From contig CM051638.1 of assembly GCA_028020825.1 (NCBI GenBank), positions 14,336,861-14,400,860 on the forward strand: a stretch of DNA of 64,000 nucleotides, written 5' to 3'. Each line of letters opens with the position of its first letter. The first letter of the stretch is position 1. The DNA is from Podargus strigoides (taxonomy: Eukaryota). The notes under the pieces were generated by a model that searched no databases, was not told the origin of the DNA, and worked only from the letters and a program-made list of their open reading frames with translations. Positions 34,361 to 64,000 of the stretch are shown here, one piece after another. The position numbers and the translations under genes were made by a program.

Positions 34361-34366
34361 CAGTAC

Positions 34367-35231: not shown

Positions 35232-35355
35232 CGGGACCCTCAAAGAGCCATTCGTCTCCTGCCACAAACTTGTTCCCGTCCTCATCCTTGAAGTCAAGCA
35301 GGGCCCGCAGGCGCAGGGCGGTGTCAGCAAGCACCACCTGCAGTGGGGTGACGCC
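35232..35355 (-). CDS. MVP: MVP coding exon 3 (124 nt)
   Basis: Acceptor tccccag|. Reads [41 protein letters not shown](G). Donor |GTGAGC. Confidence 0.85.
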
Positions 35356-36719: not shown

Positions 36720-36838
36720 CTCTCGTGATCCTGTCGGATATAGGTGTGGGGGCCAACCTCCACACGGGTGACATTGCTGTTGAGGTCCAGCACATGGACG
36801 TAGTGGTAGGGTGGTATGCGGATCACAGGGTCCTCCAT
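36720..36838 (-). CDS. MVP: MVP coding exon 1, containing the ATG at 36836-36838 (119 nt, ends in phase 2)
   Basis: Reads [39 protein letters not shown] then the donor ag|GTGGGTG. An AG acceptor (ctgcctcacag|g) lies 18 nt upstream of the ATG, which suggests this is really exon 2. Confidence 0.85.
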
Positions 36839-40800: not shown

Positions 40801-43800
40801 CCTAGGGGGACACACACAGTGGGTGAGGGAACAGTGCTGGGGGACAGCAGGTCTCGGGGGACACACACAGTGGGTGAGGGAAGAGTGCTGGGTGATAGCA
40901 GGCCTAGGGGGACACACACATAGGGTGAGGAAAGAGTGTTGGGGGACAGCAGGCCAAGGGGACACACAGAGTCGGTGAAGGAACAGTGTTGGGGGACAGC
41001 AGGCCTAGGGGGACACACAGAGTAGGTGAGGGAACAGTGTTAGGGGACAGCAGGCCTAGGGGGACACACACAGTGGGTGAGGGAACAGTGTTGGGGGACA
41101 GCAGGCCTAGGGGGACACACAGAGTGGATGAGGGAACAGTGCTGGGTGACAGCAGGCCTAGGGGGACACACACAGTGGGTGAGGGAGCAGTGCTGGGGGA
41201 CAGCAGGCCTAGGGGGACACAAACATTGGGTGAGGGAACAGTGCTGGGTGACAGCAGGCCTAGGGGGACACACACAGTGGGTGAGGGAACAGTGTTGGGG
41301 GACAGCAGGCCTAGGGGGGCACACACAGTGGGTGAGAGAACAGTGCTGGGGGACAGCAGACCTAGGGGGCATAAGCAGTGGGTGACGGAATAGTGTTGGA
41401 TGCCACCAGACCTAGGGGGACACACACAGTGGGTGAGGGACCAGTGCTGTGGGACAGCAGGCCTAGGTGGACCCACACAGTCGGGAAGGGAACAGTGCTG
41501 GGGGACAGCAGGCCTAGGGGGGCACACACAGTCGGGTAGGGAACAGTGTTGGGGGACAGCAGGCCAAGGGGGGCACACACAGTGGGTGTGGAAACAGTGT
41601 TGGGGGACAGCAGGCCTAGGGGGACACACAGAGTGGGTGAGGGAACAGTGCTGGGGGACAGCAGGCCTAGGGGGACACACACATTGCGTGAGGAAAGAGT
41701 GTTGGGGGACAGCAGGCCTAGGGGGACACACAGAGTGGGTGAGGGAACAGTGCTGGGGGACAGCAGGCCTAGGGGAGCACACACAATGGGTGAGGGAACA
41801 GTGTTGGGGGACAGCAGGCCTAGGGGGACCCACACAGTCGGGTAGGGAAAAGTGCTGGGGGACAGCAGGCCTAGGGGGACAAACACAGTGGGTGAAGGAA
41901 CAGTGCTGTGGGACAGCTGGATTAGGGGGACACACACAGTGTGTGAGGGAACAGTGTTGGGGGACAGCAGTCCTAGGGGGACACACACAGTGGGTGAGGA
42001 AACAGTGCAGGGGGACAGCAGGCCTAGGGGGACACACACAGTGTGTGAGGAGACAGTGCTGGGTGATAGCAGGCCTAGGGGGACACACACGGTGGGTGAG
42101 GGAACAGTGCTGGGGGACAGCAGGCCTAGGGGGACACACACCATAGGTGAGGGAACAGTGCTGGGGGACAGCAGGCCTAGGGGGGAATACACAGTGGGTG
42201 AGGGAACAGTGTTCGGGAACAGCAGGCCTAGGGGGGCACACACAGTGGGTGAGGGAACAGTGCTGGGGGACAGCAGGCCTAGGGGGGCATACACAGTGGG
42301 TGCGGGAACAGTGTTGGGGGACAGCAGGCCTCGGGGGACACACACAGTGGGTGAGGGAACAGTGCTGGGTGATAGCAGGCCTAGGGGGACACACACATAG
42401 GGTGAGGAAAGAGTGTTGGGGGACAGCAGGCCAAGGGGACACACAGAGTGGGTGAAGGAACAGTGTTGGGGGACAGCAGGCCTAGGGGGGCACACACAGT
42501 GTGTGTGGGAACCATGCTGGGGGACAGCAAGCCTAGGGGGACCCACACAGTGGGGTAGGGAACAGTGCTGGGTGACAGCAGGCCTAGGGGGACACACACA
42601 GTGGGTGAGGGAATAGTGCTGGGGGATAGCAGGCCTAGGTGGGCATACACAGTGGGTGAGGGAAGAGTGCTGGGGGAAGGCAGGCTTAGGGGGGCACACA
42701 CAGTGCGTGCGGGAACCTTGCTGGGGGACACCAGGCCTTGGGGGACACACACAGTGGGTGAGGGAAAAGTGCTGGGGGACAGGAGTTCTAGGGCGACACA
42801 CACAGTGGGTGAGGGAACAGTGCTGGGGGACAGCAGGCCTAGGGGGGCATACACAGTGGGTGAGGGAACAGTGTTGGGGGACAGCAGGCCTAGGGGGGGA
42901 CACAGAGTGGGTGAGGGAACAGTTTTGGGGGACAGCAGCCCTAGGGGTGCACACACAGTGGGTGAGGGAACAGTGTTGGTGGACAGCAGGCCTAGGGGGA
43001 CACACACATTGGGTGAGGGAACAGTGCTGGGGGACAGCAGGCCTAGGGGGACACACAGAGTGGGTGAGGGAACAGTGTTGGGGGACAGCAGGCCTAGGGG
43101 GGCACACACAGTGGGTGTGGGAACTGTGCTGGGGTACAGCAGGCCTAGGGGGACCCACACAGTGGGGTAGGGAACAGTGCTGGGTGACAGCAGGCCTAGG
43201 GGGACACACAGAGTGGGTGAGGGAACAGTGTTAGGGGACAGCAGGCCTAGGGGGACACACAGAGTGGGTGAGGGAACAGTGCTGGGGGACAGCAGTCCTA
43301 GGGGGACACACAGAGTAGGTGAGGGAACAGTGCTGGGGGACAGCAGGCCTAGGGGGACACACACATTGGGTGAGGAAAGAGTGTTGGGGGACAGCAGGCC
43401 TAGGGGGACTCACAGAGTGGGTGAGGGAACAGTGTTGGGGGAACGCAGGCTTAGGGGGGCACACACAGTGGGTGCGGGAAAAGTGCTGGGGGACAGGAGT
43501 TCTAGGGCGACACACACAGTGGGTGAGGGAACAGTGCTGGGGGACAGCAGGCCTAGGGGGGCATACACAGTGGGTGAGGGAACAGTGTTGGGGGACAGCA
43601 GGCCAGGGGGACACACAGAGTGGGTGAGGGAACAGTGTTGGGGGACAGCAGCCCTAGGGTGCACACACAGTGGGTGAGGAAACAGTGGTGGGGGACAGCA
43701 GGCCTAGGGGGACCCACACAGTCGGGTAGGGAACAGTGCTGGGTGACAGCAGGCCTAGGGGTACACACACAGTGGGTGAGGGAACAGTGCTGGGGGACAG

Positions 43801-46159
43801 CAGGCCTCGGGGGACACACACAGTGGGTGAGGGAAGAGTGCTGGGTGATAGCAGGCCTAGGGGGACACACACATAGGGTGAGGAAAGAGTGTTGGGGGAC
43901 AGCAGGCCAAGGGGACACACAGAGTGGGTGAAGGAACAGTGTTGGGGGACAGCAGGCCTAGGGGGACACACAGAGTGGGTGAGGGAACAGTGTTAGGGGA
44001 CAGCAGGCCTAGGGGGACACACACAGTGGGTGAGGGAACAGTGTTGGGGGACAGCAGGCCTAGGGGGACACACAGAGTGGATGAGGGAACAGTGCTGGGT
44101 GACAGCAGGCCTAGGGGGACACACACAGTGGGTGAGGGAATAGTGTTGGATGCCACCAGACCTAGGGGGACACACACAGTGGGTGAGGGACCAGTGCTGT
44201 GGGACAGCAGGCCTAGGTGGACCCACACAGTCGGGTAGGGAACAGTGTTGGGGGACAGCAGGCCAACGGGGGGCACACACAGTGGGTGTGGAAACAGTGT
44301 TGGGGGACAGCAGGCCTAGGGGGACACACAGAGTGGGTGAGGGAACAGTGCTGGGGGACAGCAGGCCAAGGGGGACACACACATTGGGTGAGGAAAGAGT
44401 GTTGGGGGACAGCAGGCCTAGGGGGACACACAGAGTGGGTGAGGGAACAGTGTTGGGGGACAGCAGGCCTAGGGGGACACCCACAGTGGGTGAGGAAACA
44501 GTGCTGGGGGACAGCAGGCCTAGGGGGACACAAACAGTGTGTGAGGGAACAGTGCTGGATGATATCAGGCCTAGGGGGACATACACGGTGGGTGAGGGAA
44601 CAGTGTTGGGGGACAGCAGGCCTAGGGGGACACACACCATAGGTGAGGGAACAGTGCTGGGGGACAGCAGGCCTAGGGGGGCACACACAGTGGGTGAGGG
44701 AACAGTGCTGGGGGACAGCAGGCCTAGGGGGGCATACACAGTGGGTGCGGGAACAGTGTTGGGGGACAGCAGGCCTCGGGGGACACACACAGTGGGTGAG
44801 GGAACAGTGCTGGGTGATAGCAGGCCTAGGGGGACACACACATAGGGTGAGGAAAGAGTGTTGGGGGACAGCAGGCCAAGGGGACACACAGAGTGGGTGA
44901 AGGAACAGTGTTGGGGGACAGCAGGCCTAGGGGGGCACACACAGTGTGTGTGGGAACCATGCTGGGGGACAGCAAGTCTAGGGGGACCCACTCAGTGGGG
45001 TAGGGAACAGTGCTGGGTGACAGCAGGCCTAGGGGGACACACACAGTGGGTGAGGGAATAGTGCTGGGGGATAGCAGGCCTAGGTGGGCATACACAGTGG
45101 GTGAGGGAAGAGTGCTGGGGGAAGGCAGGCTTAGGGGGGCACACACAGTGGGTGCGGGAACCTTGCTGGGGGACAGCAGGCCTAGGGGGACACACACAGT
45201 GGGTGAGGAAAAAGTGCTGGGGGACAGGAGTTCTAGGGCGACACACACAGTGGGTGAGGGAACAGTGCTGGGGGACAGCAGGCCTAGGGGGGCATACACA
45301 GTGGGTGAGGAAACAGTGTTGGGGAAAGCAGGCCTAGGGGGACACACAGAGCGGGTGAGGGAACAGTGTTGGGGGACAGCAGCCCTAGGGGGACACACAG
45401 AGTGGGTGAGGGAACAGTGTTGGGGGACAGCAGGCCTAGGATGGCACACACAGTGGGTGTGGGAACTGTGCTGGGGTACAGCAGGCCTAGGGGGACCCAC
45501 ACAGTGGGGTAGGGAACAGTGCTGGGTGACAGCAGGCCTAGGGGGACACACAGAGTGGGTGAGGGAACAGTGTTAGGGGACAGCAGGCCTAGGGGGACAC
45601 ACAGAGTGGGTGAGGGAACAGTGCTGGGGGACAGCAGGCCTAGGGGGACACACAGAGTGGGTGAGGGAACAGTGCTGGGGGACAGCAGGCCTAGGGGGAC
45701 ACACACATTGGGTGAGGAAAGAGTGTTGGGGGACAGCAGGCCTAGGGGGACACACAGAGTGGGTGAGGGAACAGTGCTGGGGGACAGCAGGCCTAGGGGG
45801 ACCCACACAGTCGGGTAGGAAACAGTGCTGGGGGACAGCTGGATTAGGGGGACACACACAGTGTGTGAGGGAACAGTGTTGGGGGACAGCAGTCCTAGGG
45901 GGACACACACAGTGGGTGAGGAAACAGTGCTGGGGGACAGCAGGCCTAGGGGGACACACACAGTGTGTGAGGGAACAGTGCTGGGTGATAGCAGGCCTAG
46001 GGGGACACACACGGTGGGTGAGGGAACAGTGTTGGGGGACAGCAGGCCTAGGGGGACACACACCATAGGTGAGGGAACAGTGCTGCGGGACAGCAGGCCT
46101 AGGGGGACACACAGAGTGGGTGAGGGTACAGTGTTGGGGGACAGCAGGACTAGGGGGGC

Positions 46160-49100
46160 ACACACTGTGGGTGTGGGAACCGTGCTGGGGGACAGCAGGC
46201 CTAGGGGGACCCACACAGTCGGGTAGGGAACAGTGCTGGGCGACAGCAGGCCTAGGGGGACAAACACAGTGGGTGAAGGAACAGTGCTGGGGGACAGCTG
46301 GATTAGGGGGACACACACAGTGTGTGAGGGAACAGTGTTGGGGGACAGCAGTCCTAGGGGGACACACACAGTGGGTGAGGAAACAGTGCTGGGGGACAGC
46401 AGGCCTAGGGGGACACACACAGTGTGTGAGGGAACAGTGCTGGGTGATAGCAGGCCTTGGGGGACACACACCATAGGTGAGGGAACAGTGCTGCGGGACA
46501 GCAGGCCTAGGGGGACACACACATAGGGTGAGGAAAGAGTGTTGGGGGACAGCAGGCCAAGGGGCACACAGAGTGCGTGAAGGAATAGTGTTAGGGGACA
46601 GCAGGCCTAGGGGGGCACATACAGTGTGTGTGGGAACCATGCTGGGGGACAGGAAGCCTAGGGGGACCCACAAAGTGGGGTAGGGAACAGTGCTGGGTGA
46701 CAGCAGGCCTAGGGGGACACACACCGTGGGTGAGGGAGTAGTGCTGAGGGATAGCAGGCCTAGGTGGGCATACACAGTGGGTGAGGGAAGAGTGCTGGGG
46801 GAAGGCAGGCTTAGCGGGGCACACACAGTGGGTGCGGGAACCTTGCTGGGGGACAGCAGGCCTAGGGGGACACACACAGTGGGTTAGGGAAAAGTGCTGG
46901 GGGACAGGAGTTCTAGGGCGACACACACAGTGGGTGAGGGAACAGTGCTGGGGGACAGCAGGCCTAGGGGGGCATACACAGTGGGTGAGGGAACAGTGTT
47001 GGGGGACAGCAGGCCTAGGGGGACACACACAGTGGGTGAGGGAACAGTGTTGGGGGACAGCAGCCCTAGGGGTGCACACACAGTGGGTGAGGGAACAGTG
47101 CTGGGTGATAGCAGGCCTAGGGGGACACACACATAGGGTGAGGAAAGAGTGTTGGGGGACAGCAGGCCAAGGGGACACACAGAGTGGGTGAAGGAACAGT
47201 GTTGGGGGACAGCAGGCCTAGGGGGGCACACACAGTGTGTGTGGGAACCATGCTGGGGGACAGCAAGCCTAGGGGGACCCACACAGTGCGGTAGGGAACA
47301 GTGCTGGGTGACAGCAGGCCTAGGGGGACACACACAGTGGGTGAGGGAATAGTGCTGGGGGATAGTAGGCCTAGGGGGACACACAGACTGGGTGAGGGAA
47401 CAGTGTTAGGGGACAGCAGGCCTAGGGGGACACACAGAGTGGGTGAGGGAACAGTGCTGGGGGACAGCAGGCCTAGGGGGGCACACAGAGTAGGTGAGGG
47501 AACAGTGCTGGGGGACAGCAGGCCTAGGGGGACACACACATTGGGTGAGGAAAGAGTGTTGGGGGACAGCAGGCCTAGGGGGACACACAGAGTGGGTGAG
47601 GGAACAGTGTTGGGGGAACGCAGGCTTAGGGGGGCACACACAGTGGGTGCGGGAACCTTGCTGGGGGACAGCAGGCCTAGGGGGACACACACAGTGGGTG
47701 AGGGAAAAGTGCTGGGGGACAGGAGTTGTAGGGCGACACACACAGTGGGTGAGGGAACAGTGCTGGGGGACAGCAGGCCTAGGGGGGCATACACAGTGGG
47801 TGAGGGAACAGTGTTGGGGGACAGCAGGCCTAGGGGGACACACAGAGTGGGTGAGGGAACAGTGTTGGGGGACAGCAGCCCTAGGGGTGCACACACAGTG
47901 GGTGAGGAAACAGTGGTGGGGGACAGCAGGCCTAGGGGGACACACACAGTGTGTGAGGGAACAGTGCTGGGTGATAGCAGGCCTAGGGGGACACACACGG
48001 TGGGTGAGGGAACAGTGTTGGGGGACAGCAGGCCTAGGGGGACACACACCATAGGTGAGGGAACAGTGCTGCGGGACAGCAGGCCTAGGGGGACACACAG
48101 AGTGGGTGAGGGTACAGTGTTGGGGGACAGCAGGACTAGGGGGGCACACACTGTGGGTGTGGGAACCGTGCTGGGGGACAGCAGGCCTAGGGGGACACAC
48201 AGAGTGGGTGAGGGAACAGTGCTGGGGGACAGCAGGCCTAGGTGGACACACACATTGGGTGAGGAAAGAGTGTTGGGGGACAGCAGGCCTAGGGGGACAC
48301 ACAGAGTGGGTGAGGGAACAGTGTTGGGGGACAGCAGGCCTAGGGGGGCATACACAGTGGGTGAGGGAACAGTGTTGGGGGACAGCAGGCCTAGGGGGAC
48401 ACACACAGTGTGTGAGGGAACTGTGCTGGGGGACAGCAGGCCTAGGGGGGCATACACAGTGTGTGCGGGAACAGTGTTGGGGGACAGCAGGCCTCGGGGG
48501 ACACACACAGTGGGTGAGGTAACAGTACTGGGTGATAGCAGGCCTAGGGGGACACACACATAGGGTGAGGAAAGAGTGTTGGGGGACAGCAGGCCAAGGG
48601 GACACACAGAGTGGGTGAAGGAACAGTGTTGGGGGACAGCAGGCCTAGGGGGACACACAGTGGGTGAGGGAACAGTGTTGGGTGACAGCAGGTCTAGGGG
48701 GACACACAGAGTGGGTGAGGGAACAGTGCTGGGGGACAGCAGGCCTAGGGGGGCCCACACAGTGGGGTAGGGAACAGTGCTGGGTGACAGCAGGCCTAGG
48801 GGCACACACAGAGTGGGTGAGGAAACAGTGTTGGGGGACAGCAGGCCTCGGGGGACACACAGAGTGGGTGAGGGAACAGTGTTGGGGGACACCAGGGCTA
48901 GGGGGACACACAGAGTGGGTGTTGGAACAGTGTTGGGGGACAGGAGGCCTAAGGGGAACCACACGGTGGGGTAGGGAACAGTGCTGGGTGACACCAGGCT
49001 TAGGGGGACACGCACAGTGGGTGAGGAAACAGTTTTGGGGGACAGCAGGCCTAGGGGGACACACAGAGTGGATTAGGGAACAGAGGTGGGGGACAGCAGG

Positions 49101-51040
49101 CCTAGGGGGACACACACAGTGGGTGAAGGAACAGTGCTGTGGGACAGCTGGATTAGGGGGACACACACAGTGTGTGAGGGAACAGTGTTGGGGGACAGCA
49201 GTCCTAGGGAGACACACACAGTGGGTGAGGAAACAGTGCTGGGGGACAGCAGGCCTAGGGGGACACACACAGTGTGTGAGGGAACAGTGCTGGGTGATAG
49301 CAGGCCTTGGGGGACACACACGGTGGGTGAGGGAACAGTGTTGGGGGACAGCAGGCCTAGGGGGACACACACCATAGGTGAGGGAACAGTGCTGGGGGAC
49401 AGCAGGCCTAGGGGGGAATCCACAGTGGGTGAGGGAACAGTGTTGGGGGACAGCAGTCCTAGGGGGGCACACACAGTGGGTGAGGGAACAGTGCTGGGGG
49501 ACAGCAGGCCTTGGGGGACACACACAGTGGGTGAGGGAACAGTGCTGGGTGATAGCAGGCCTAGGGGGGCACACACAATGGGTGAGGGAACAGTGTTGGG
49601 GGACAGCAGGACTAGGGGGGCACACACAGTCGGGTAGGGAACAGTGCTGGGGGACAGCTGGATTAGGGGGACACACAGTGCGTGAGGGAACTGTGTTGCG
49701 GGACAGCAGTCCTAGGGGGACACACACAGTGGGTGAGGAAACAGTGTTGGGGGACAGCAGGCCTAGGGGGACACACACAGTGGGTGCGGGAACAGTGTTG
49801 GGGGACAGCAGGCCTCGGGGGACACACACAGTGGGTGAGGTAACAGTACTGGGTGATAGCAGGCCTAGGGGGACACACACATAGGGTGAGGAAAGAGTGT
49901 TGGGGGACAGCAGGCCAAGGGGACACACAGAGTGGGTGAAGGAACAGTGTTGGGGGACAGCAGGCCTAGGGGGACACACAGTGGGTGAGGGAACAGTGTT
50001 GGGGGACAGCAGGTCTAGGGGGACACACAGAGTGGGTGAGGGAACAGTGCTGGGGGACAGGAAGCCTAGGGGGACCCACACAGTGGGGTAGGGAACAGTG
50101 CTGGGTGACAGCAGGCCTAGGGGCACACACAGAGTGGGTGAGGAAACAGTGTTGGGGGACAGCAGGCCTCGGGGGACACACAGAGTGGGTGAGGGAACGG
50201 TGTTGGGGGACAGCAGGGCTAGGGGGACACACAGAGTGGGTAAGGGAACATTGCTGGGGGACAGCAGGCCTAGGGGGGCACACGCAGTGGGTGAGGGAAG
50301 AGTGCTTGGGGACAGCAGGCCTAGGGGGGCACACACAGTGGGTGTGGGAACAGTGTTGGGGGACAGGAGCCCTAAGGGGAACCACACAGTGGGGTAGGGA
50401 ACAGTGCTGGGTGACACCAGGCTTAGGGGGACACGCACAGTGGGTGAGGAAACAGTTTTGGGGGACAGCAGGCCTAGGGGGACACACAGAGTGGATTAGG
50501 GAACAGAGGTGGGGGACAGCAGGCCTAGGGGGACACACACAGTGGGTGAGGGAACAGTGCTGGGGGACAGCAGGTCTAGGGGGTCACACACAGTGGGTGA
50601 AGGAACAGTGCTGTGGGACAGCTGGATTAGGGGGACACACACAGTGTGTGAGGGAACAGTGTTGGGGGACAGCAGTCCTAGGGGGACACACACAGTGGGT
50701 GAGGAAACAGTGCTGGGGGACAGCAGGCCTAGGGGGACACACACAGTGTGTGAGGGAACAGTGCTGGGTGATAGCAGGCCTTGGGGGACACACACGGTGG
50801 GTGAGGGAACAGTGTTGGGGGACAGCAGGCCTAGGGGAACACACACCACAGGTGAGGGAACAGTGCTGGGGGACAGCAGGCCTAGGGGGGAATCCACAGT
50901 GGGTGAGGGAACAGTGTTGGGGGACAGCAGTCCTAGGGGGGCACACACAGTGGGTGAGGGAACAGTGCTGGGGGACAGCAGGCCTAGGGGGGCATACACA
51001 GTGAGTGCGGGAACAGTGTTGGGGGACAGCAGGACTAGGG
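46160..51040. repeat. Higher-order repeat block A (4,885 bp, about 96 units). It is sequence-identical to block B over every ORF examined.
   Basis: ORF pairs at a constant +4,885 offset have identical translations. 46591..47178(-) matches 51476..52063(-), 195 aa. 47117..49015(-) matches 52002..53900(-), 632 aa. 47301..48563(+) matches 52186..53448(+), 420 aa. 48645..50438(-) matches 53530..55323(-), 597 aa. 49985..51004(+) matches 54870..55889(+), 339 aa. Confidence 0.9.
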
Positions 51041-51044
51041 GGGC

Positions 51045-54000
51045 ACACACTGTGGGTGTGGGAACCGTGCTGGGGGACAGCAGGCCTAGGGGGACCCACA
51101 CAGTCGGGTAGGGAACAGTGCTGGGCGACAGCAGGCCTAGGGGGACAAACACAGTGGGTGAAGGAACAGTGCTGGGGGACAGCTGGATTAGGGGGACACA
51201 CACAGTGTGTGAGGGAACAGTGTTGGGGGACAGCAGTCCTAGGGGGACACACACAGTGGGTGAGGAAACAGTGCTGGGGGACAGCAGGCCTAGGGGGACA
51301 CACACAGTGTGTGAGGGAACAGTGCTGGGTGATAGCAGGCCTTGGGGGACACACACCATAGGTGAGGGAACAGTGCTGCGGGACAGCAGGCCTAGGGGGA
51401 CACACACATAGGGTGAGGAAAGAGTGTTGGGGGACAGCAGGCCAAGGGGCACACAGAGTGCGTGAAGGAATAGTGTTAGGGGACAGCAGGCCTAGGGGGG
51501 CACATACAGTGTGTGTGGGAACCATGCTGGGGGACAGGAAGCCTAGGGGGACCCACAAAGTGGGGTAGGGAACAGTGCTGGGTGACAGCAGGCCTAGGGG
51601 GACACACACCGTGGGTGAGGGAGTAGTGCTGAGGGATAGCAGGCCTAGGTGGGCATACACAGTGGGTGAGGGAAGAGTGCTGGGGGAAGGCAGGCTTAGC
51701 GGGGCACACACAGTGGGTGCGGGAACCTTGCTGGGGGACAGCAGGCCTAGGGGGACACACACAGTGGGTTAGGGAAAAGTGCTGGGGGACAGGAGTTCTA
51801 GGGCGACACACACAGTGGGTGAGGGAACAGTGCTGGGGGACAGCAGGCCTAGGGGGGCATACACAGTGGGTGAGGGAACAGTGTTGGGGGACAGCAGGCC
51901 TAGGGGGACACACACAGTGGGTGAGGGAACAGTGTTGGGGGACAGCAGCCCTAGGGGTGCACACACAGTGGGTGAGGGAACAGTGCTGGGTGATAGCAGG
52001 CCTAGGGGGACACACACATAGGGTGAGGAAAGAGTGTTGGGGGACAGCAGGCCAAGGGGACACACAGAGTGGGTGAAGGAACAGTGTTGGGGGACAGCAG
52101 GCCTAGGGGGGCACACACAGTGTGTGTGGGAACCATGCTGGGGGACAGCAAGCCTAGGGGGACCCACACAGTGCGGTAGGGAACAGTGCTGGGTGACAGC
52201 AGGCCTAGGGGGACACACACAGTGGGTGAGGGAATAGTGCTGGGGGATAGCAGGCCTAGGGGGACACACAGACTGGGTGAGGGAACAGTGTTAGGGGACA
52301 GCAGGCCTAGGGGGACACACAGAGTGGGTGAGGGAACAGTGCTGGGGGACAGCAGGCCTAGGGGGGCACACAGAGTAGGTGAGGGAACAGTGCTGGGGGA
52401 CAGCAGGCCTAGGGGGACACACACATTGGGTGAGGAAAGAGTGTTGGGGGACAGCAGGCCTAGGGGGACACACAGAGTGGGTGAGGGAACAGTGTTGGGG
52501 GAACGCAGGCTTAGGGGGGCACACACAGTGGGTGCGGGAACCTTGCTGGGGGACAGCAGGCCTAGGGGGACACACACAGTGGGTGAGGGAAAAGTGCTGG
52601 GGGACAGGAGTTGTAGGGCGACACACACAGTGGGTGAGGGAACAGTGCTGGGGGACAGCAGGCCTAGGGGGGCATACACAGTGGGTGAGGGAACAGTGTT
52701 GGGGGACAGCAGGCCTAGGGGGACACACAGAGTGGGTGAGGGAACAGTGTTGGGGGACAGCAGCCCTAGGGGTGCACACACAGTGGGTGAGGAAACAGTG
52801 GTGGGGGACAGCAGGCCTAGGGGGACACACACAGTGTGTGAGGGAACAGTGCTGGGTGATAGCAGGCCTAGGGGGACACACACGGTGGGTGAGGGAACAG
52901 TGTTGGGGGACAGCAGGCCTAGGGGGACACACACCATAGGTGAGGGAACAGTGCTGCGGGACAGCAGGCCTAGGGGGACACACAGAGTGGGTGAGGGTAC
53001 AGTGTTGGGGGACAGCAGGACTAGGGGGGCACACACTGTGGGTGTGGGAACCGTGCTGGGGGACAGCAGGCCTAGGGGGACACACAGAGTGGGTGAGGGA
53101 ACAGTGCTGGGGGACAGCAGGCCTAGGTGGACACACACATTGGGTGAGGAAAGAGTGTTGGGGGACAGCAGGCCTAGGGGGACACACAGAGTGGGTGAGG
53201 GAACAGTGTTGGGGGACAGCAGGCCTAGGGGGGCATACACAGTGGGTGAGGGAACAGTGTTGGGGGACAGCAGGCCTAGGGGGACACACACAGTGTGTGA
53301 GGGAACTGTGCTGGGGGACAGCAGGCCTAGGGGGGCATACACAGTGTGTGCGGGAACAGTGTTGGGGGACAGCAGGCCTCGGGGGACACACACAGTGGGT
53401 GAGGTAACAGTACTGGGTGATAGCAGGCCTAGGGGGACACACACATAGGGTGAGGAAAGAGTGTTGGGGGACAGCAGGCCAAGGGGACACACAGAGTGGG
53501 TGAAGGAACAGTGTTGGGGGACAGCAGGCCTAGGGGGACACACAGTGGGTGAGGGAACAGTGTTGGGTGACAGCAGGTCTAGGGGGACACACAGAGTGGG
53601 TGAGGGAACAGTGCTGGGGGACAGCAGGCCTAGGGGGGCCCACACAGTGGGGTAGGGAACAGTGCTGGGTGACAGCAGGCCTAGGGGCACACACAGAGTG
53701 GGTGAGGAAACAGTGTTGGGGGACAGCAGGCCTCGGGGGACACACAGAGTGGGTGAGGGAACAGTGTTGGGGGACACCAGGGCTAGGGGGACACACAGAG
53801 TGGGTGTTGGAACAGTGTTGGGGGACAGGAGGCCTAAGGGGAACCACACGGTGGGGTAGGGAACAGTGCTGGGTGACACCAGGCTTAGGGGGACACGCAC
53901 AGTGGGTGAGGAAACAGTTTTGGGGGACAGCAGGCCTAGGGGGACACACAGAGTGGATTAGGGAACAGAGGTGGGGGACAGCAGGCCTAGGGGGACACAC

Positions 54001-55925
54001 ACAGTGGGTGAAGGAACAGTGCTGTGGGACAGCTGGATTAGGGGGACACACACAGTGTGTGAGGGAACAGTGTTGGGGGACAGCAGTCCTAGGGAGACAC
54101 ACACAGTGGGTGAGGAAACAGTGCTGGGGGACAGCAGGCCTAGGGGGACACACACAGTGTGTGAGGGAACAGTGCTGGGTGATAGCAGGCCTTGGGGGAC
54201 ACACACGGTGGGTGAGGGAACAGTGTTGGGGGACAGCAGGCCTAGGGGGACACACACCATAGGTGAGGGAACAGTGCTGGGGGACAGCAGGCCTAGGGGG
54301 GAATCCACAGTGGGTGAGGGAACAGTGTTGGGGGACAGCAGTCCTAGGGGGGCACACACAGTGGGTGAGGGAACAGTGCTGGGGGACAGCAGGCCTTGGG
54401 GGACACACACAGTGGGTGAGGGAACAGTGCTGGGTGATAGCAGGCCTAGGGGGGCACACACAATGGGTGAGGGAACAGTGTTGGGGGACAGCAGGACTAG
54501 GGGGGCACACACAGTCGGGTAGGGAACAGTGCTGGGGGACAGCTGGATTAGGGGGACACACAGTGCGTGAGGGAACTGTGTTGCGGGACAGCAGTCCTAG
54601 GGGGACACACACAGTGGGTGAGGAAACAGTGTTGGGGGACAGCAGGCCTAGGGGGACACACACAGTGGGTGCGGGAACAGTGTTGGGGGACAGCAGGCCT
54701 CGGGGGACACACACAGTGGGTGAGGTAACAGTACTGGGTGATAGCAGGCCTAGGGGGACACACACATAGGGTGAGGAAAGAGTGTTGGGGGACAGCAGGC
54801 CAAGGGGACACACAGAGTGGGTGAAGGAACAGTGTTGGGGGACAGCAGGCCTAGGGGGACACACAGTGGGTGAGGGAACAGTGTTGGGGGACAGCAGGTC
54901 TAGGGGGACACACAGAGTGGGTGAGGGAACAGTGCTGGGGGACAGGAAGCCTAGGGGGACCCACACAGTGGGGTAGGGAACAGTGCTGGGTGACAGCAGG
55001 CCTAGGGGCACACACAGAGTGGGTGAGGAAACAGTGTTGGGGGACAGCAGGCCTCGGGGGACACACAGAGTGGGTGAGGGAACGGTGTTGGGGGACAGCA
55101 GGGCTAGGGGGACACACAGAGTGGGTAAGGGAACATTGCTGGGGGACAGCAGGCCTAGGGGGGCACACGCAGTGGGTGAGGGAAGAGTGCTTGGGGACAG
55201 CAGGCCTAGGGGGGCACACACAGTGGGTGTGGGAACAGTGTTGGGGGACAGGAGCCCTAAGGGGAACCACACAGTGGGGTAGGGAACAGTGCTGGGTGAC
55301 ACCAGGCTTAGGGGGACACGCACAGTGGGTGAGGAAACAGTTTTGGGGGACAGCAGGCCTAGGGGGACACACAGAGTGGATTAGGGAACAGAGGTGGGGG
55401 ACAGCAGGCCTAGGGGGACACACACAGTGGGTGAGGGAACAGTGCTGGGGGACAGCAGGTCTAGGGGGTCACACACAGTGGGTGAAGGAACAGTGCTGTG
55501 GGACAGCTGGATTAGGGGGACACACACAGTGTGTGAGGGAACAGTGTTGGGGGACAGCAGTCCTAGGGGGACACACACAGTGGGTGAGGAAACAGTGCTG
55601 GGGGACAGCAGGCCTAGGGGGACACACACAGTGTGTGAGGGAACAGTGCTGGGTGATAGCAGGCCTTGGGGGACACACACGGTGGGTGAGGGAACAGTGT
55701 TGGGGGACAGCAGGCCTAGGGGAACACACACCACAGGTGAGGGAACAGTGCTGGGGGACAGCAGGCCTAGGGGGGAATCCACAGTGGGTGAGGGAACAGT
55801 GTTGGGGGACAGCAGTCCTAGGGGGGCACACACAGTGGGTGAGGGAACAGTGCTGGGGGACAGCAGGCCTAGGGGGGCATACACAGTGAGTGCGGGAACA
55901 GTGTTGGGGGACAGCAGGCCTTGGG
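51045..55925. repeat. Higher-order repeat block B (4,885 bp), a tandem copy of block A
   Basis: Same ORF pairs as block A. Divergence from the flanks begins at about 46170/51055 on the left and about 51037/55922 on the right. Confidence 0.9.
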
Positions 55926-58029
55926 GGACACACACAGTGGGTGAGGGAACAGTGCTGGGTGATAGCAGGCCTAGGGGGGCACACACAATGGGTGAGGGAA
56001 CAGTGTTGGGGGACAGCAGGACTAGGGGGGCACACACAGTCGGGTAGGGAACAGTGCTGGGGGACAGCTGGATTAGGGGGACACACAGTGCGTGAGGGAA
56101 CTGTGTTGCGGGACAGCAGTCCTAGGGGGACACACACAGTGGGTGAGGAAACAGTGCTGGGGGACAGCAGGCCTAGGGGGACACACACAGTGGGTGCGGG
56201 AACAGTGTTGGGGGACAGCAGGCCTCGGGGGACACACACAGTGGGTGAGGTAACAGTACTGGGTGATAGCAGGCCTAGGGGGACACACACATAGGGTGAG
56301 GAAAGAGTGTTGGGGGACAGCAGGCCAAGGGGACACACAGAGTGGGTGAAGGAACAGTGTTGGGGGACAGCAGGCCTAGGGGGACACACAGTGGGTGAGG
56401 GAACAGTGTTGGGGGACAGCAGGTCTAGGGGGACACACAGAGTGGGTGAGGGAACAGTGCTGGGGGACAGGAAGCCTAGGGGGACCCACACAGTGGGGTA
56501 GGGAACAGTGCTGGGTGACAGCAGGCCTAGGGGCACACACAGAGTGGGTGAGGAAACAGTGTTGGGGGACAGCAGGCCTCGGGGGACACACAGAGTGGGT
56601 GAGGGAACAGTGTTGGGGGACAGCAGGGCTAGGGGGACACACAGAGTGGGTAAGGGAACATTGCTGGGGGACAGCAGGCCTAGGGGGGCACACGCAGTGG
56701 GTGAGGGAAGAGTGTTTGGGGACAGCAGGCCTAGGGGGGCACACACAGTGGGTGTGGGAACAGTGTTGGGGGACAGGAGGCCTAAGGGGAACCACACAGT
56801 GGGGTAGGGAACAGTGCTGGGTGACACCAGGCTTAGGGGGACACGCACAGTGGGTGAGGAAACAGTTTTGGGGGACAGCAGGCCTAGGGGGACACACAGA
56901 GTGGATTAGGGAAAAGAGGTGGGGGACAGCAGGCCTAGGGGGACACACACAGTGGGTGAGGGAACAGTGCTGGGGGACAGCAGGTCTAGGGGTACACACA
57001 CAGTGGGTGAAGGAACAGTGCTGTGGGACAGCTGGATTAGGGGGACACACACAGTGTGTGAGGGAACAGTGTTGGGGGACAGCAGTCCTAGGGGGACACA
57101 CACAGTGGGTGAGGAAACAGTGCTGGGGGACAGCAGGCCTAGGGGGACACACACAGTGTGTGAGGGAACAGTGCTGGGTGATAGCAGGCCTTGGGGGACA
57201 CACACAGTGGGTGAGGGAACAGTGTTGGGGGACAGCAGGCCTAGGGGGACACACACCATAGGTGAGGGAACAGTGCTGGGGGACAGCAGGCCTAGGGGGG
57301 AATCCACAGTGGGTGAGGGAACAGTGTTGGGGGACAGCAGGCCTAGGGCGGCACACACAGTGGGTGAGGAAACAGTGCTGGGGGACAGCAGGCCTAGGGG
57401 GGCATACACAGTGGGTGCGGGAACAGTGTTGGGGGACAGCAGGCCTCGGGGGACACACACAGTGGGTGAGGGAACAGTGCTGGGTGATAGCAGGCCTAGG
57501 GTGACACACACATAGGGTGAGGAAAGAGTGTTGGGGGACAGCAGGCCAAGGGGACACACAGAGTGGGTGAAGGAACAGTGTTGGGGCACAGCAGGCCTAG
57601 GGGGGCACACACAGTGTGTGTGGGAACCATGCTGGGGGACAGGAAGCCAAGGGGGACCCACAAAGTGGGGTAGGGAACAGTGCTGGGTGACAGCAGGCCT
57701 AGGGGGACACACACCGTGGGTGAGGGAATAGTGCTGGGGGATAGCAGGCCTAGGTGGGCATACACAGTGGGTGAGGGAAGAGTGCTGGGGGAAGGCAGGC
57801 TTAGGGGGGCACACACAGTGGGTGCGGAACCTTGCTGGGGGACAGCAGGCCTAGGGGGACACACACAGTGGGTGAGGGAAAAGTGCTGGGGGACATGAGT
57901 TCTAGGGCGACACATACAGTGGGTGAGGGAACAGTGCTGGGGGACAGGAGGCCTAGGGGGGCATACACAGTGGGTGAGGGAACAGTGTTGGGGGACAGCA
58001 GGCCTAGGGGGACACACACAGTGGGTGAG

Positions 58030-61000
58030 GAACCAGTGTTGGGGGACATCAGCCCTAGGGGTGCACACACAGTGGGTGCGGGAACAGTGTTGGGGGACAG
58101 CAGGCCTAGGGGGACGGACACATTGGGTGAGGGAACAGTGCTGGGGGACAGCAGGCCTAGGGGGACACACACAGTGGGTGAGGGAACAGTGTTGGGGGAC
58201 AGCAGGCCTAGGGGGGCACACATAGTGGGTGTCGGAACTGTGCTGGGGTACAGCAGGCCTAGGGGGACCCACACAGTGGATGAGGGAACAGTGCTGGGGG
58301 ACAGCAGGCCTAGGGGGGCACACACAGTCGGGTAGGGAACAGTGCTGGGGGACAGCAGGCCTAGGGGGGCATACACAGTGGGTGCGGGAACAGTGTTGGG
58401 GGACAGCAGGCCTCGGGGGACACACACAGTGGGTGAGGAAACAGTGCTGTGGGACAGCAGGTCTAGGGGGTCACACACAGTGGGTGAAGGAACAATGCTG
58501 TGGGACAGCTGGATTAGGGGGACACACACAATGTGTGAGGGAACAGTGTTGGGGGACAGCAGTCCTAGGGGGACACACACAGTGGGTGAGGAAACAGTGC
58601 TGGGGGACAGCAGGCCTAGGGGGACACACACAGTGTGTGAGGGAACAGTGCTGGGTGATAGCAGGCCTTGAGGGACACACACGGTGGGTGAGGGAACAGT
58701 GTTTGGGGACAGCAGGCCTAGGGGGACACACACCATAGGTGAGGGAACAGTGCTGGGGGACAGCAGGCCTAGGGGGGAATCCACAGTGGGTGAGGGAACA
58801 GTGTTGGGGGACAGCAGTCCTAGGGGGGCACACACAGTGGGTGAGGGAACAGTGCTGGGGGACAGCAGGCCTTGGGGGACACACACAGTGGGTGAGGGAA
58901 CAGTGCTGGGTGATAGCAGGCCTAGGGTGACACACACATAGGGTGAGGAAACAGTGTTGGGGGACAGCAGGCCTAGGGGGGCACACACAGTGTGTGTGGG
59001 AACCATGCTGGGGGACAGGAAGCCAAGGGGGACCCACAAAGTGGGGTAGGGATCAGTGCTGGGTGACAGCAGGCCTAGGGGGACACACACCGTGGGTGAG
59101 GGAATAGTGCTGGGGGATAGCAGGCCTAGGTGGGCATACACAGTGGGTGAGGGAAGAGTGCTGGGGGAAGGCAGGCTTAGGGGGGCACACACAGTGGGTG
59201 CGGGAACCTTGATGGGGGACAGCAGGCCTAGGGGGACACACACAGTGGGTGAGGGAAAAGTGTTGGGGGACATCAGCCCTAGGGGTGCACACACAGTGGG
59301 TGCGGGAACAGTGTTGGGGGACAGCAGGCCTAGGGGGACACACACAGTGTGTGAGGGAACTGTGCTGGGGGACAGCAGGCCTAGGGGGGCATACACAGTG
59401 GGTGCGGGAACAGTGTTGGGGGACAGCAGGCCTCGGGGGACACACACAGTGGGTGAGGAAACAGTGCTGGGGGACAGCAGGCCTAGGGGGACACACACAG
59501 TGTGTGAGGGACCAGTGCTGGGTGATAGCAGGCCTTGGGGGACACACACGGTGGGTGAGGGAACAGTGCTGGGGGACAGCAGGCCTAGGGGGACACACAC
59601 CATAGGTGAGGGAACAGTGCTGGGGGACAGCAGGCCTAGGGGGGAATCCACAGTGGGTGAGGGAACAGTGTTGGGGGACAGCAGGCCTAGGGGGGCATAC
59701 ACAGTGGGTGCGGGAACAGTGTTGGGGGACAGCAGGCCTAGGGGGACACACACAGTGGGTGAGGGAACAGTGTTGGGGGACAGCAGGCCTAGGGGGGCAC
59801 ACAGAGTGGGTGTCGGAACTGTGCTGGGGTACAGCAGGCCTAGGGGGACCCACACAGTGGGTGAGGGAACAGTGCTGGGGAACAGCAGGCCTAGGGGGGC
59901 ACACACAGTCGGGTAGGGAACAGTGCTGGGGGACAGCAGGCCTAGGGGGGCATACACAGTGGGTGCGGGAACAGTGCTGGGGGACAGCAGGCCTAGGGGG
60001 ACACACACCATAGGTGAGGGAACAGTGCTGGGGGACATCAGCCCTAGGGGTGCACACACAGTGGGTGCGGGAACAGTGTTGGGGGACAGCAGGCCTAGGG
60101 GGACGGACACATTGGGTGAGGGAACAGTGCTGGGGGACAGCAGGCCTAGGGGGACACACACAGTGGGTGAGGGAACAGTGTTGGGGGACAGCAGGCCTAG
60201 GGGGGCACACAGAGTGGGTGTCGGAACTGTGCTGGGGTACAGCAGGCCTAGGGGGACCCACACAGTGGGTGAGGGAACAGTGCTGGGGGACAGCAGGCCT
60301 AGGGGGGCACACACAGTCGGGTAGGGAACAGTGCTGGGGGACAGCAGGCCTAGGGGGGCATACACAGTGGGTGCGGGAACAGTGTTGGGGGACAGCAGGC
60401 CTCGGGGGACACACACAGTGGGTGAGGAAACAGTGCTGGGGGACAGCAGGTCTAGGGGGTCACACACAGTGGGTGAAGGAACAATGCTGTGGGACAGCTG
60501 GATTAGGGGGACACACACAATGTGTGAGGGAACAGTGTTGGGGGACAGCAGTCCTAGGGGGACACACACAGTGGGTGAGGAAACAGTGCTGGGGGACAGC
60601 AGGCCTAGGGGGACACACACAGTGTGTGAGGGAACAGTGCTGGGTGATAGCAGGCCTTGAGGGACACACACGGTGGGTGAGGGAACAGTGTTTGGGGACA
60701 GCAGGCCTAGGGGGACACACACCATAGGTGAGGGAACAGTGCTGGGGGACAGCAGGCCTAGGGGGGAATCCACAGTGGGTGAGGGAACAGTGTTGGTGGA
60801 CAGCAGTCCTAGGGGGGCACACACAGTGGGTGAGGGAACAGTGCTGGGGGACAGCAGGCCTTGGGGGACACACACAGTGGGTGAGGGAACAGTGCTGGGT
60901 GATAGCAGGCCTAGGGTGAAACACACATAGGGTGAGGAAACAGTGTTGGGGGACAGCAGGCCTAGGGGGGCACACACAGTGTGTGTGGGAACCATGCTGG

Positions 61001-62010
61001 GGGACAGGAAGCCAAGGGGGACCCACAAAGTGGGGTAGGGATCAGTGCTGGGTGACAGCAGGCCTAGGGGGACACACACCGTGGGTGAGGGAATAGTGCT
61101 GGGGGATAGCAGGCCTAGGTGGGCATACACAGTGGGTGAGGGAAGAGTGCTGGGGGAAGGCAGGCTTAGGGGGGCACACACAGTGGGTGCGGGAACCTTG
61201 CTGGGGGACAGCAGGCCTAGGGGGACACACACAGTGGGTGAGGGAAAAGTGTTGGGGGACATCAGCCCTAGGGGTGCACACACAGTGGGTGCGGGAACAG
61301 TGTTGGGGGACAGCAGGCCTAGGGGGACACACACAGTGTGTGAGGGAACTGTGCTGGTGGACAGCAGGCCTAGGGGGGCATACACAGTGGGTGCGGGAAC
61401 AGTGTTGGGGGACAGCAGGCCTCGGGGGACACACACAGTGGGTGAGGAAACAGTGCTGGGGGACAGCAGGCCTAGGGGGACACACACAGTGTGTGAGGGA
61501 CCAGTGCTGGGTGATAGCAGGCCTTGGGGGACACACACGGTGGGTGAGGGAACAGTGCTGGGGGACAGCAGGCCTAGGGGGACACACACCATAGGTGAGG
61601 GAACAGTGCTGGGGGACAGCAGGCCTAGGGGGGAATCCACAGTGGGTGAGGGAACAGTGTTGGGGGACAGCAGGCCTATGGGGGCATACACAGTGGGTGC
61701 GGGAACAGTGTTGGGGGACAGCAGGCCTTGGGGGACACACACAGTGGGTGAGGGAACAGTGCTGGGTGATAGCAGGCCTAGGGTGACACACACATAGGGT
61801 GAGGAAACAGTGTTGGGGGACAGCAGGCCTAGGGGGGCACACACAGTGTGTGTGGGAACCATGCTGGGGGACAGGAAGCCAAGGGGGACCCACAAAGTGG
61901 GGTAGGGAACAGTGCTGGGTGACAGCAGGCCTAGGGGGACACACACCGTGGGTGAGGGAATAGTGCTGGGGGATAGCAGGCCTAGGTGGGCATACACAGT
62001 GGGTGAGGGA
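58030..62010. repeat. Two tandem copies of a 1,989-bp higher-order repeat (39 units), about 99% identical
   Basis: 58471..59037(-) versus 60460..61026(-) is 188 aa with 2 differences. 58342..58671(+) versus 60331..60660(+) is 109 aa with 1 difference. 58739..58930(+) versus 60728..60919(+) and 59056..(+) versus 61045..(+) also match. All offsets are exactly 1,989, which is 39 x 51. Confidence 0.85.
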
Positions 62011-64000
62011 AGAGTGCTGGGGGAAGGCAGGCTTAGGGGGGCACACACAGTGGGTGCGGGAACCTTGCTGGGGGACAGCAGGCCTAGGGGGACACACACA
62101 GTGGGTGAGGGAACAGTGTTGGGGGACAGCAGGCCTAGGGGGGCACACACAATGGGTGAGGGAACAGTGTTGGGGGACAGCAGGCCTAGGGGGGCACAAA
62201 CAGTCGGGTAGGGAACAGTGCTGGGGGACAGCAGGCCTAGGGGGACAAACACAGTGTGTGAAGGAACAGTGCTGGGGGACAGCTGGATTAGGGGGACACA
62301 CAATGCGTGAGGGAACTGTGTTGCGGGACAGCAGTCCTAGGGGGACACACACAGTGGGTGAGGAAACAGTGTTGGGGGACAGCAGGCCTAGGGGGACACA
62401 CACAGTGGGTGGGGAACAGTGCTGTGTGACAGCAGGCCTAGGGGGACACACAGCGTCGGTGAGAGAATAGTGCTGGGGGATAGCAGGCCTAGGTGGGCAT
62501 ACACAGTGGGTGAGGGAAGAGTGCTGGGGGAAGGCAGGCTTAGGGGGGCACACACAGTGGGTGCGGGAAACTTGCTGGGGGACAGCAGGCCTAGGGGGAA
62601 ACACAGAGTGGGTGAGGGAAAAGTGTTGGGGGACAGCAGGCCTAGGGGGGCATACACAGTGGGTGAGGGAACAGTGTTGGGGGACAGCAGGCCTAGGGGG
62701 ACACACACAGTGGGTGAGGGAACAGTGTTGGGGGACAGCAGCCCTAGGGGTGCACACACAGTGGGTGAGGGAACAGTGTTGGGGGACAGCAGGCCTAGGG
62801 GGACACACACATTGGGTGAGGGACCAGTGCTGTGGGACAGCAGGCCTAGGGGGACACACACAGTGGGTGAGGGAACAGTGCTGGGGGACAGCAGGCCTAG
62901 GGGGACACACACATTGGGTGAGGAAAGAGTGTTGGGGGACAGCAGGCCTAGGGGGACACACAGAGTGGGTGAGGGAACAGTGTTGGGGGACAGCAGGCCT
63001 AGGGGGGCACACACAATGGGTGAGGGAACAGTGTTGGGGGACAGCAGGCCTAGGGGGGGCACACACAGTCGGGTAGGGAACAGTGCTGGGGAACAGCAGG
63101 CCTAGGGGGACAAAGACAGTGGGTGAAGGAACAGTGCTGGGGGACAGCTGGATTAGGGGGACACACAGTGCGTGAGGGAACTGTGTTGCGGGACAGCAGT
63201 CCTAGGGGGACACACACAGTGGGTTAGGAAACAGTGCTGGGGGACAGCAGGCCTAGGGGGACACACACAGTGTGTGAGGGAACTGTGCTGGGGGACAGCA
63301 GGCCTAGGGGGACACACACAGTGGGTGAGGTAACAGTACTGGGTGATAGCAGGCCTAGGGGGACACACGCATAGGGTGAGGAAAGAGTGTTGGGGGACAG
63401 CAGGCCAAGGGGACACACAGAGTGGGTGAAGGAACAGTGTTGGGGGACAGCAGGCCTAGGGGGGCACACACAGTGTGTGTGGGAACCATGCTGGGGGACA
63501 GCAAGCTAAGGGGGACCCACAAAGTGGGGTAGGGAACAGTGCTGGGTGACAGCCGGCCTAGGGGGACACACACCGTGGGTGAGGGAATAGTGCTGGGGGA
63601 TAACAGGCCTAGGTGGGCATACACAGTGGGTGAGGGAAGAGTGCTGGGGGACAGCAGGCCTAGGAGGACCCACACAGTGGGGTAGGGAACAGTGCTGGGT
63701 GACAGCAGTCCTAGGGGGACACACAGAGTGGGTAAGGGAACATTGCTGGATGACAGCAGTCCTAGGGCGACACACACAGTGGGTGAGGGAACAGTGTTGG
63801 GGGACAGCAGGCCTAGGGGGGCACAAACAGTGGGTGAGGGAACAGTGCTGGGGGACAGCAGGCCTAGGGGGACACACACAGTGGATGAGGAAACAGCGTT
63901 TGGGGACAGCAGGCCTAGGGGGACACACACAGTGGGTGAGGGAACAGTGCTCGGGAACAGCAGGACTAGGGGGACACACACAGTGGGTCAGGGGACAGTG

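Follow-up and report, generated by a model that had tools for sequence, protein, structure and literature searches.

Two adjacent 4,885-bp blocks of a 51-bp satellite, located in a 64,000-nucleotide stretch of Podargus strigoides DNA (assembly GCA_028020825.1, contig CM051638.1; the whole stretch analysed is referred to as the window), probably stem from a genuine tandem segmental duplication that took place very recently within non-coding satellite sequence, by unequal exchange or template switching. Alignment of positions 46128–51033 to positions 51013–55918, the offset being exactly 4,885 bp, returned one mismatch in 4,906 bp (99.98% identity), and the longest exact run on this offset measured 3,667 bp. 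A sequence-only reading of the same DNA had placed two tandem 4,885-bp blocks at 46160–55925 and reported no detectable differences between them. The offset held, while the limits had to be moved (46128–51012 and 51013–55897), and the claim of 100% identity fell with the discovery of a T at 47366 facing a C at 52251. That reading had itself warned of mismatches hidden at synonymous positions, and this is precisely where the substitution was found: it occupies a third codon position and is silent in both open reading frames (ORFs) covering it, one of 632 aa on the minus strand and one of 420 aa on the plus strand.

Wrap-around alignment to the 51-bp consensus divided each block into 96 units (89 of 51 bp, four of 49 bp and three of 50 bp, amounting to 4,885 bp), in agreement with the number of diverged units given previously. 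The 49- and 50-bp variants had been anticipated correctly, but the blocks hold no 52-bp unit; the only two in the entire array lie at 44256 and 63042. The order of unit types forms an identical string in block A and block B. When unit order was shuffled 200 times as a chance control, the longest near-identical diagonal run reached 2–4 units, against the 96 observed.

The array containing the blocks is at least 26 kb long, its right end lying outside the window (Table 1). Tandem Repeats Finder (TRF) reported a period of 51, 513.8 copies and 86% matches, and the full units comprised 476 of 51 bp, 23 of 50 bp, 12 of 49 bp and two of 52 bp. Units differed by a mean of 13.0% in pairwise comparisons and by 7.6% from the consensus, values which replace the earlier estimate of 5–15%; the pairwise figure falls within the range expected of clearly diverged monomers (about 10–40%). 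Copies consisting of many monomers are thus far closer to each other than single monomers are (99.98% versus 87% identity). The array has a GC content of 0.62, a GC skew of +0.42, which makes the plus strand the G-rich one, and a CpG observed/expected ratio of 0.08. Canonical G-quadruplex motifs (loops of up to 7 nt) were absent from the array; long-loop motifs numbered 326 on the plus strand and zero on the minus strand, with a mean G4Hunter score of ~ 1.0. The 51-bp unit has no significant hairpin or cruciform potential (z = −1.3 on one strand, −1.1 on the other). No known RNA families or tRNAs were matched in the sequence analysed, no solitary satellite units were seen in the window to the left of 37840, and no match to the satellite was present in the metagenome contigs scanned. 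Likewise, 16–17-mers of the unit did not occur in the text of the literature searched, and no microchromosome repeat of 51 bp came up when the literature was searched for one.

Table 1 Features of the window (positions on the forward strand, position 1 being the first letter of the window)
Feature	Position	Strand	Remarks
Major vault protein (MVP) coding exons	26929..36838	-	Pfam Vault families; ATG at 36838, ~ 1 kb from array start
CpG island, presumed MVP promoter	37200..37839	.	Adjoins first satellite unit; CpG observed/expected 0.72 vs 0.08 in array
51-bp satellite array	37840..64000	+	Consensus CAGCAGGCCTAGGGGGACACACACAGTGGGTGAGGGAACAGTGCTGGGGGA; 513 full units and one partial; continues past window end
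Block A	46128..51012	+	96 units, 4,885 bp
Sole base difference between blocks	47366 (T) vs 52251 (C)	+	Consensus base C
Novel junction (block end to block start)	51013..51033	+	Inside 21-bp identity ACAGTGTTGGGGGACAGCAGG
Block B	51013..55897	+	Block A copied head-to-tail; 21-bp overhang to 55918
T', older third copy of the last 30–31 units of the block	55905..57485	+	1,525-bp-period tandem duplication
Separate intermediate-age duplication	58040..61783	+	Period 1,989 bp (39 units)

Block B follows block A directly, with no spacer, through a seamless junction at which the 51-bp unit phase is kept; the window contains no N letters, and hence none at this point. The 21-mer ACAGTGTTGGGGGACAGCAGG inside which the junction lies is also found at the left edge (46128–46148) and at the right edge (55898–55918), an identity common to both breakpoints and the junction. 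This 21-mer occurs 110 times in the array, while the 61-mer spanning the junction (50993–51053) is unique within the window. Along the 4,885-bp diagonal, the number of mismatches per 51 bp jumps at the block edges, from 0 to 3–9 on the left and to 6–14 on the right. The left flank was ~ 11% mismatched on this diagonal, compared to 13% between units array-wide. Similarity of the flanks is therefore that of the inter-unit background, and nothing in them points to an earlier periodicity of 4,885 bp.

Several other duplications were identified in the array. The sequence designated T' corresponds to 49495–51019 in block A and to 54380–55904 in block B, from which it diverges by ~ 0.95% (~ 15 mismatches over 1,581 bp); its edges are sharp. 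The two copies of the 1,989-bp-period duplication have 33 units in common and differ by ~ 0.5%. Internal duplications with periods of 1,321 and 1,474 bp (~ 1% divergent) are identical in both blocks and are consequently older than the 4,885-bp event. Collectively, divergence forms a series of 0.02% (4,885 bp), ~ 0.5% (1,989 bp), ~ 0.95% (1,525 bp) and 1–3% for the others, and the array is a mosaic of nested, variable-length duplications of graded age, of which the 4,885-bp pair is both the youngest and the largest.

The label 'higher-order repeat', given to the blocks by the sequence-only reading, had to be withdrawn. Only 2.004 multi-unit copies are present at a period of 96 units, where a higher-order repeat calls for at least three, and many different local periods coexist in the array. 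No array-wide multi-unit period was detected: after removal of block B, the lowest mean divergence was 0.117 (at an offset of 39 units), compared to ~ 0.13 generally. With the unit-type map resolving into a mosaic of recurring cassettes, a true higher-order repeat was ruled out. Also rejected was a crossover through the recurring 'GAEHF(N)' cassette found near both breakpoints, as these cassettes stand two units off the junction register and the sequence flanking the blocks shows only background similarity along the 4,885-bp diagonal.

The features described above (head-to-tail arrangement without spacer, in-register junction, breakpoint identity, flanks at background level) are those of a tandem duplication, and of the three origins previously left side by side (crossover, gene conversion or assembly artefact) they favour unequal crossover. 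Starting from a proposed ancestral arrangement X-[H(66 units) T(30 units)]-T'-Y, misalignment of two 51-bp units separated by 4,885 bp could have been followed by an exchange between them inside the 21-bp identity, or by a template switch of the replication fork at the same place; either would yield X-[H T]-[H T]-T'-Y. Stretches of 21 exact bp in ~ 87%-identical sequence are short for classical homologous recombination, which leaves the exact mechanism among several candidates, namely unequal sister-chromatid exchange, replication slippage and microhomology-mediated template switching. The event fits the usual growth of satellites by unequal exchange or layered expansion, rather than a fixed higher-order repeat; layered expansion has likewise given rise to repeat blocks of 26–98 monomers in the 41-bp CNM satellite of the chicken (PMC9974502). 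One observation counts against this explanation: a single 51-bp unit contains both the right breakpoint of the 4,885-bp duplication and the junction of the earlier 1,525-bp one, which is not predicted by a single random event.

Gene conversion or homogenisation, in which a long tract would have equalised two older and already diverged 4,885-bp repeats, appears improbable to us. Concerted evolution is frequent in satellites, and a conversion tract would also leave sharp edges and near-identity. Such a tract would, however, have to coincide with the entire period to a precision of 21 bp, and at 4.9 kb it would be long for a vertebrate conversion tract; moreover, conversion of an older periodicity is disfavoured because the diagonal drops to the inter-unit background just outside the blocks. 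An assembly artefact, either a false tandem duplication or a block number misjudged by the assembler, is somewhat easier to conceive of, though still unlikely. A false duplication would look near-perfectly identical, and the tandem placement of two haplotypes could make a heterozygous SNP appear as the single C/T difference. Ko et al. (2022, PMC9516828) described false heterotype and homotype duplications in vertebrate assemblies, with false duplications documented for birds as well, and the pair resembles them in consisting of adjacent, near-identical copies on one scaffold of a bird genome. In addition, high-GC, G-quadruplex-prone avian satellite arrays receive low HiFi coverage and cause assembly trouble, in line with the poor PacBio depth and difficult assembly of G-rich, high-GC avian regions (PMC9974502; bioRxiv 10.1101/2025.10.17.683159). 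Same-scaffold false duplications, however, mostly have a gap between the copies (PMC9516828), unlike the gapless sequence and in-register junction seen here. Arbitrary contig ends would give the exact 51-bp register only about one time in 51. The unique junction between the end of T and the start of H must presumably stem from reads, which, chimeric reads aside, would imply two copies or more, and the entire 9.8-kb structure is probably shorter than a typical long read. Finally, the sole difference is a substitution and not a homopolymer indel, and an artefact would not yield the graded divergence seen in the other duplications of the array.

The long ORFs of the blocks raise the further alternative that the array encodes a protein with 17-residue repeats, the duplication being then gene-internal or a gene duplication. 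The 632-aa ORF at 47117..49015(-) recurs at 52002..53900(-), and the 597-aa ORF at 48645..50438(-) recurs at 53530..55323(-), in each case with the same translation, just as the sequence-only reading had described. ORFs of up to 632 aa on both strands and a unit length divisible by 3 speak for a protein, but four of the six consensus frames lack a stop codon from base composition alone, and with a unit of exactly 17 codons (51 bp) such open frames give rise to the long ORFs as a by-product. Synonymous fractions in the six frames ranged from 0.13 to 0.39 (0.23–0.32 expected), with no synonymous excess in any of them, and 37 of the 513 units (7%) are 49, 50 or 52 bp long and disrupt every frame. 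Not a single homologue of the array ORFs was found at E ≤ 0.001 among 5.8 billion proteins. Pfam matches to Hexapep_GlmU and Nup214_FG were dismissed as repeat noise, their scores being summed over repeats with zero individually significant stretches. The array ORFs show no coding signature and have no biological meaning of their own, and we consider a protein-coding array extremely improbable. As a word of caution, long ORFs in satellites with a period divisible by 3 are not genes.

Human alpha-satellite, whose higher-order repeats and layered expansions are cited in PMC9974502, has a monomer of 171 bp, higher-order copies numbering from hundreds to thousands, and a centromeric function. The 51-bp array is similar to it in having diverged monomers, near-identical multi-monomer copies and a youngest layer that is the most identical, and differs in that its pair reflects a single two-copy event. 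The 41-bp satellite CNM, described by Huang et al. (2023, PMC9974502) from acrocentric micro- and dot chromosomes of the chicken, is likewise avian and built from short diverged monomers (41 versus 51 bp), with head-to-tail blocks of very high identity (26–98 monomers versus 96 here) formed in layers. Its higher-order clusters, however, are centromeric and repeat one unit 5–162 times (PMC9974502), whereas the 51-bp array, compared by description, has two copies only, no global period and a position adjoining a gene promoter. PO41, a 41-bp subtelomeric repeat of chicken and quail, shares GC-richness (63% versus 62%) and the division into a G-rich and a C-rich strand; both repeats form extended tandem arrays where bird microchromosomes are gene-rich, and PO41 has been associated with recombination (PMC4301066, PMC3091757). 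Again compared by description, PO41 differs in its period (41 versus 51 bp); transcription and conservation between chicken and quail are known features of PO41 (PMC4301066, PMC3091757). The 41-bp period of the avian CNM and PO41 satellites is therefore not that of the array.

Head-to-tail copying of a 96-unit block is ordinary satellite dynamics. Recent near-identical duplications within arrays are expected, and complete genomes of birds and humans have already provided examples, so that no concept is changed by the present pair. It does offer a base-resolved case of vertebrate satellite growth, in which one event can be followed together with its two breakpoints, the 21-bp identity at the point of exchange and the underlying older layers. 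The pair may also serve as an assembly-quality check in a difficult GC-rich avian region, and is likely to be a copy-number-polymorphic marker.

A more speculative reading, to which we attach little probability, would see in the array an actively expanding satellite specific to its lineage, lying against the CpG-island promoter of MVP and having a G-rich strand prone to form G-quadruplexes or R-loops, with structure-induced breaks recurring at the same unit. Such recurrent breaks, if real, would account for the presence of the 1,525-bp junction in the same unit as the right breakpoint of the 4,885-bp pair. Like the PO41 arrays at the chiasma site of chicken chromosome 16, the array could in that case act as a recombination or instability hotspot or as a chromatin boundary.

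Further sequence similarities were also recorded for the window. CR1 matches were ~ 60% identical across birds and turtles. The MVP protein shared 93% amino-acid identity with that of Chlamydotis macqueenii, and a metagenome contig carrying a bird MVP was also found, which was only 88% identical and therefore originates from another species.

Direct nucleotide self-comparison of the array of 51-bp units showed that positions 46128–51033 and 51013–55918 are equal at an offset of 4,885 bp over 4,906 bp with one exception, a T at 47366 against a C at 52251 (identity 99.98%, longest exact run 3,667 bp). We refer to 46128–51012 as block A and to its head-to-tail copy at 51013–55897 as block B. The sole difference falls at a third codon position and is silent in both open reading frames covering the site, which is why a sequence-only reading based on translations had overlooked it and described the copies as 100% identical, although it had itself raised the possibility of a mismatch hidden at a synonymous position. 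Its limits for the pair, 46160–55925, were essentially right (46128–55918 by nucleotide comparison), and the minus-strand ORFs that it had reported do recur 4,885 bp apart with unchanged translations, one of 632 aa (47117..49015 and 52002..53900) and one of 597 aa (48645..50438 and 53530..55323). Mean divergence was 13.0% between units and 7.6% between units and consensus. The longest near-identical diagonal run spanned 96 units, compared with 2–4 units when unit order was shuffled 200 times; the repetition of the block is real and far beyond chance.

Units were delimited by aligning the full array to the 51-bp consensus with wrap-around. This gave 96 units per block, the number counted previously, of which 89 were 51 bp long, four 49 bp and three 50 bp (4,885 bp in total). 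Variant units of 49 and 50 bp had thus been correctly predicted, while the 52-bp units also expected in the block were absent from it: the array contains two, at 44256 and 63042, both outside the blocks.

Along the 4,885-bp diagonal, the number of mismatches in a 51-bp window rose from 0 to 3–8 at the left edge and from 0 to 6–14 at the right edge, after which register was lost. Such values correspond to ordinary unit-to-unit similarity, so the blocks are not embedded in an older 4,885-bp periodicity. Identity extends 21 bp beyond one period, and the 21-mer ACAGTGTTGGGGGACAGCAGG is found at 46128, 51013 and 55898 with divergence directly on both sides. Since this 21-mer is common in the array (110 occurrences), the breakpoint site itself is unremarkable. 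The sole novel junction (51013–51033), at which the block's final 30 units (T) end and its first 66 (H) begin, is seamless and in 51-bp phase, and a 61-mer spanning it is unique in the window.

The 21-bp identity at the edges and junction is what is left when two units pair out of register and exchange within such a patch, which would have produced the second block. We infer a single event: unequal exchange between sister chromatids or homologues, or else slippage or a template switch during replication with the same outcome. All of these fit the sequence equally well; 21 exact bp in ~ 87% identical DNA is short for classical homologous recombination. Avian mutation rates are roughly 2–5 × 10^-9 per site per year or generation. 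At this rate, one difference in 4,906 bp would date the event to the order of 10^4–10^5 years ago, with a very wide Poisson range, and the 1,525-bp and 1,989-bp duplications elsewhere in the array would be roughly 25–50 times older.

A very recent unequal crossover, the leading interpretation of the sequence-only reading, is the best supported explanation. Gene conversion, put forward in the same reading as another way in which the two blocks could have been made alike, is disfavoured by the flanks, which are at background similarity on the 4,885-bp diagonal. An assembly artefact is a minority possibility. High-GC, non-B-DNA-rich avian regions do have poor PacBio coverage (PMC9974502; bioRxiv 10.1101/2025.10.17.683159), but false duplications on the same scaffold are mostly separated by a gap (PMC9516828), whereas the window contains no N and unit register is kept across the junction between the blocks. 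Moreover, the unique junction sequence would have to stem from reads, and the whole 9.8-kb structure should be shorter than a typical long read. The sole difference between the blocks is a substitution rather than a homopolymer indel, and an artefact would not generate the older duplications of graded divergence seen in this array.

When units were clustered into types, the resulting letter map revealed a mosaic of recurring multi-unit cassettes in differing combinations, and off-diagonal matches formed a graded divergence series (see table). Block-internal duplications with periods of 1,321 and 1,474 bp (~ 1% divergent) are identical in A and B and are therefore older than the event that produced the second block. 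Block B runs straight into T', which is an older copy of its last 30 units, so that the local structure reads X-[H66 T30]-[H66 T30]-T'30-Y, X and Y standing for what lies on either side. With block B removed, no global higher-order period was detected, mean unit divergence being ~ 0.13 at every offset with shallow local dips only. 'Higher-order repeat', the label previously given to the blocks, is a misnomer for two copies in an array with no array-wide period.

The 1,989-bp duplication (58040–61783) is not a clean tandem: its two 33-unit copies have six units ('AiAABF') between them that in part match the beginning of the copy, implying that another rearrangement accompanied or followed the duplication. 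Within 55898–55960, one 51-bp unit is shared by the right-hand breakpoint of the 4,885-bp duplication (55898–55918) and the junction window of the older 1,525-bp duplication (55905–55960), either by chance or, as this may hint, because a fragile unit was reused.

Among described systems, the chicken 41-bp CNM satellite comes closest: it has higher-order units of 26–98 monomers repeated 5–162 times and, like human alpha satellite, evolves by layered expansion (PMC9974502). The 96-monomer block is of the same scale and mode of origin, but lacks what defines a higher-order repeat, as there are only two copies and no array-wide period. PO41, a strand-asymmetric 41-bp repeat (63% GC) that occurs in gene-rich microchromosome regions and is associated with recombination (PMC4301066, PMC3091757), is alike in composition and differs in period (41 vs 51 bp). 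Zebra finch dot chromosomes are rich in tandem repeats, minisatellites above all, which make up > 70% of intron sequence there; tandem repeats of that genome are also enriched in non-B motifs, G-quadruplex motifs among them (bioRxiv 10.1101/2025.10.17.683159), a pattern that fits this locus. The duplication of the block is a further example of a process that is already well known.

The array begins abruptly with a complete unit at 37840, ~ 1 kb upstream of the start codon of the major vault protein (MVP) gene, and is at least 26.2 kb long (~ 514 units), a lower bound as it reaches the window end; no solitary units were found to its left in the window. Its G+C content is 62% (GC skew +0.42), yet CpG is absent from the consensus and reaches an observed/expected ratio of only 0.08 in the array. 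Long-loop G-quadruplex motifs numbered 326 on the G-rich plus strand and 0 on the minus strand (mean G4Hunter ~ 1.0), canonical short-loop motifs were absent from the array, and the hairpin potential of the unit was not significant on either strand. Consensus positions 17 (A/G, 31% non-consensus) and 44 (C/T, 45% non-consensus) are hypervariable and define unit subtypes. The unit had no match in the literature searched or in metagenome contigs, and the 64-kb window contained no Rfam families or tRNAs. Protein coding was rejected: the long ORFs follow from the unit itself, 51 bp being 17 codons and four of the six consensus frames lacking a stop, synonymous variation was not in excess in any frame, 7% of units shift the frame, none of 5.8 billion proteins was homologous to the 632-aa translation, which is not on record, and Pfam matches included no individually significant stretch.

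Repeat periods and other features of the window
Feature	Position	Strand	Details
Period 4,885 bp			96 units; 0.02% divergence
Period 1,989 bp	58040-59794 vs 60029-61783		33 shared units; ~0.5%
Period 1,525 bp	54380-55960 vs 55905-57485		31 units; ~0.95%
Periods 510, 867, 1,321, 1,474, 2,445, 2,856, 2,955 bp			shorter segments; 1-3%
CR1-like fragments	2213-3600	-	
Retroviral integrase	6236-6799	+	
Retroviral env TM-like	7902-8297	+	
Retroviral RNase H	12076-12738	-	
CR1 LINE	13581-17341	-	apparently full-length, both ORFs open
CR1 ORF2	13581..16268	-	895 aa; endonuclease + reverse-transcriptase domains
CR1 ORF1	16271..17341	-	356 aa; weak GDSL/esterase-like match
Second CR1	~18658-21141	+	frameshifted
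MVP exons	26929-36838 (26929 approximate)	-	protein matches
CpG island	~37200-37839		observed/expected 0.72

The content of the window is avian/eukaryotic, with a CR1 LINE, retroviral fragments and a bird-like MVP. Endogenous retrovirus fragments occur on both strands within 1–12800. Because avian CR1 copies are mostly 5'-truncated, the intact element at 13581–17341 may be young. The MVP protein shares 93% identity with that of the bustard Chlamydotis macqueenii and 66–75% with MVPs of turtles and other vertebrates. The introns of the gene are short and GC-rich; TE-rich DNA of lower GC content borders it on one side, the CpG island and then the satellite on the other. Among the exons, and presumably intronic, lies a G-rich minisatellite (34708–34919, GGGGTGCTGGAGGGTGA..., periods 30, 48 and 110 bp), similar in flavour to the large array and built from a different unit. 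An ENA metagenome contig (ERZ27241793:k133_111489, 1228–1556) matched window positions 33190–34556 with 88% identity in an MVP exon and 80% in an intron, and is host DNA of another bird species in a metagenome assembly.
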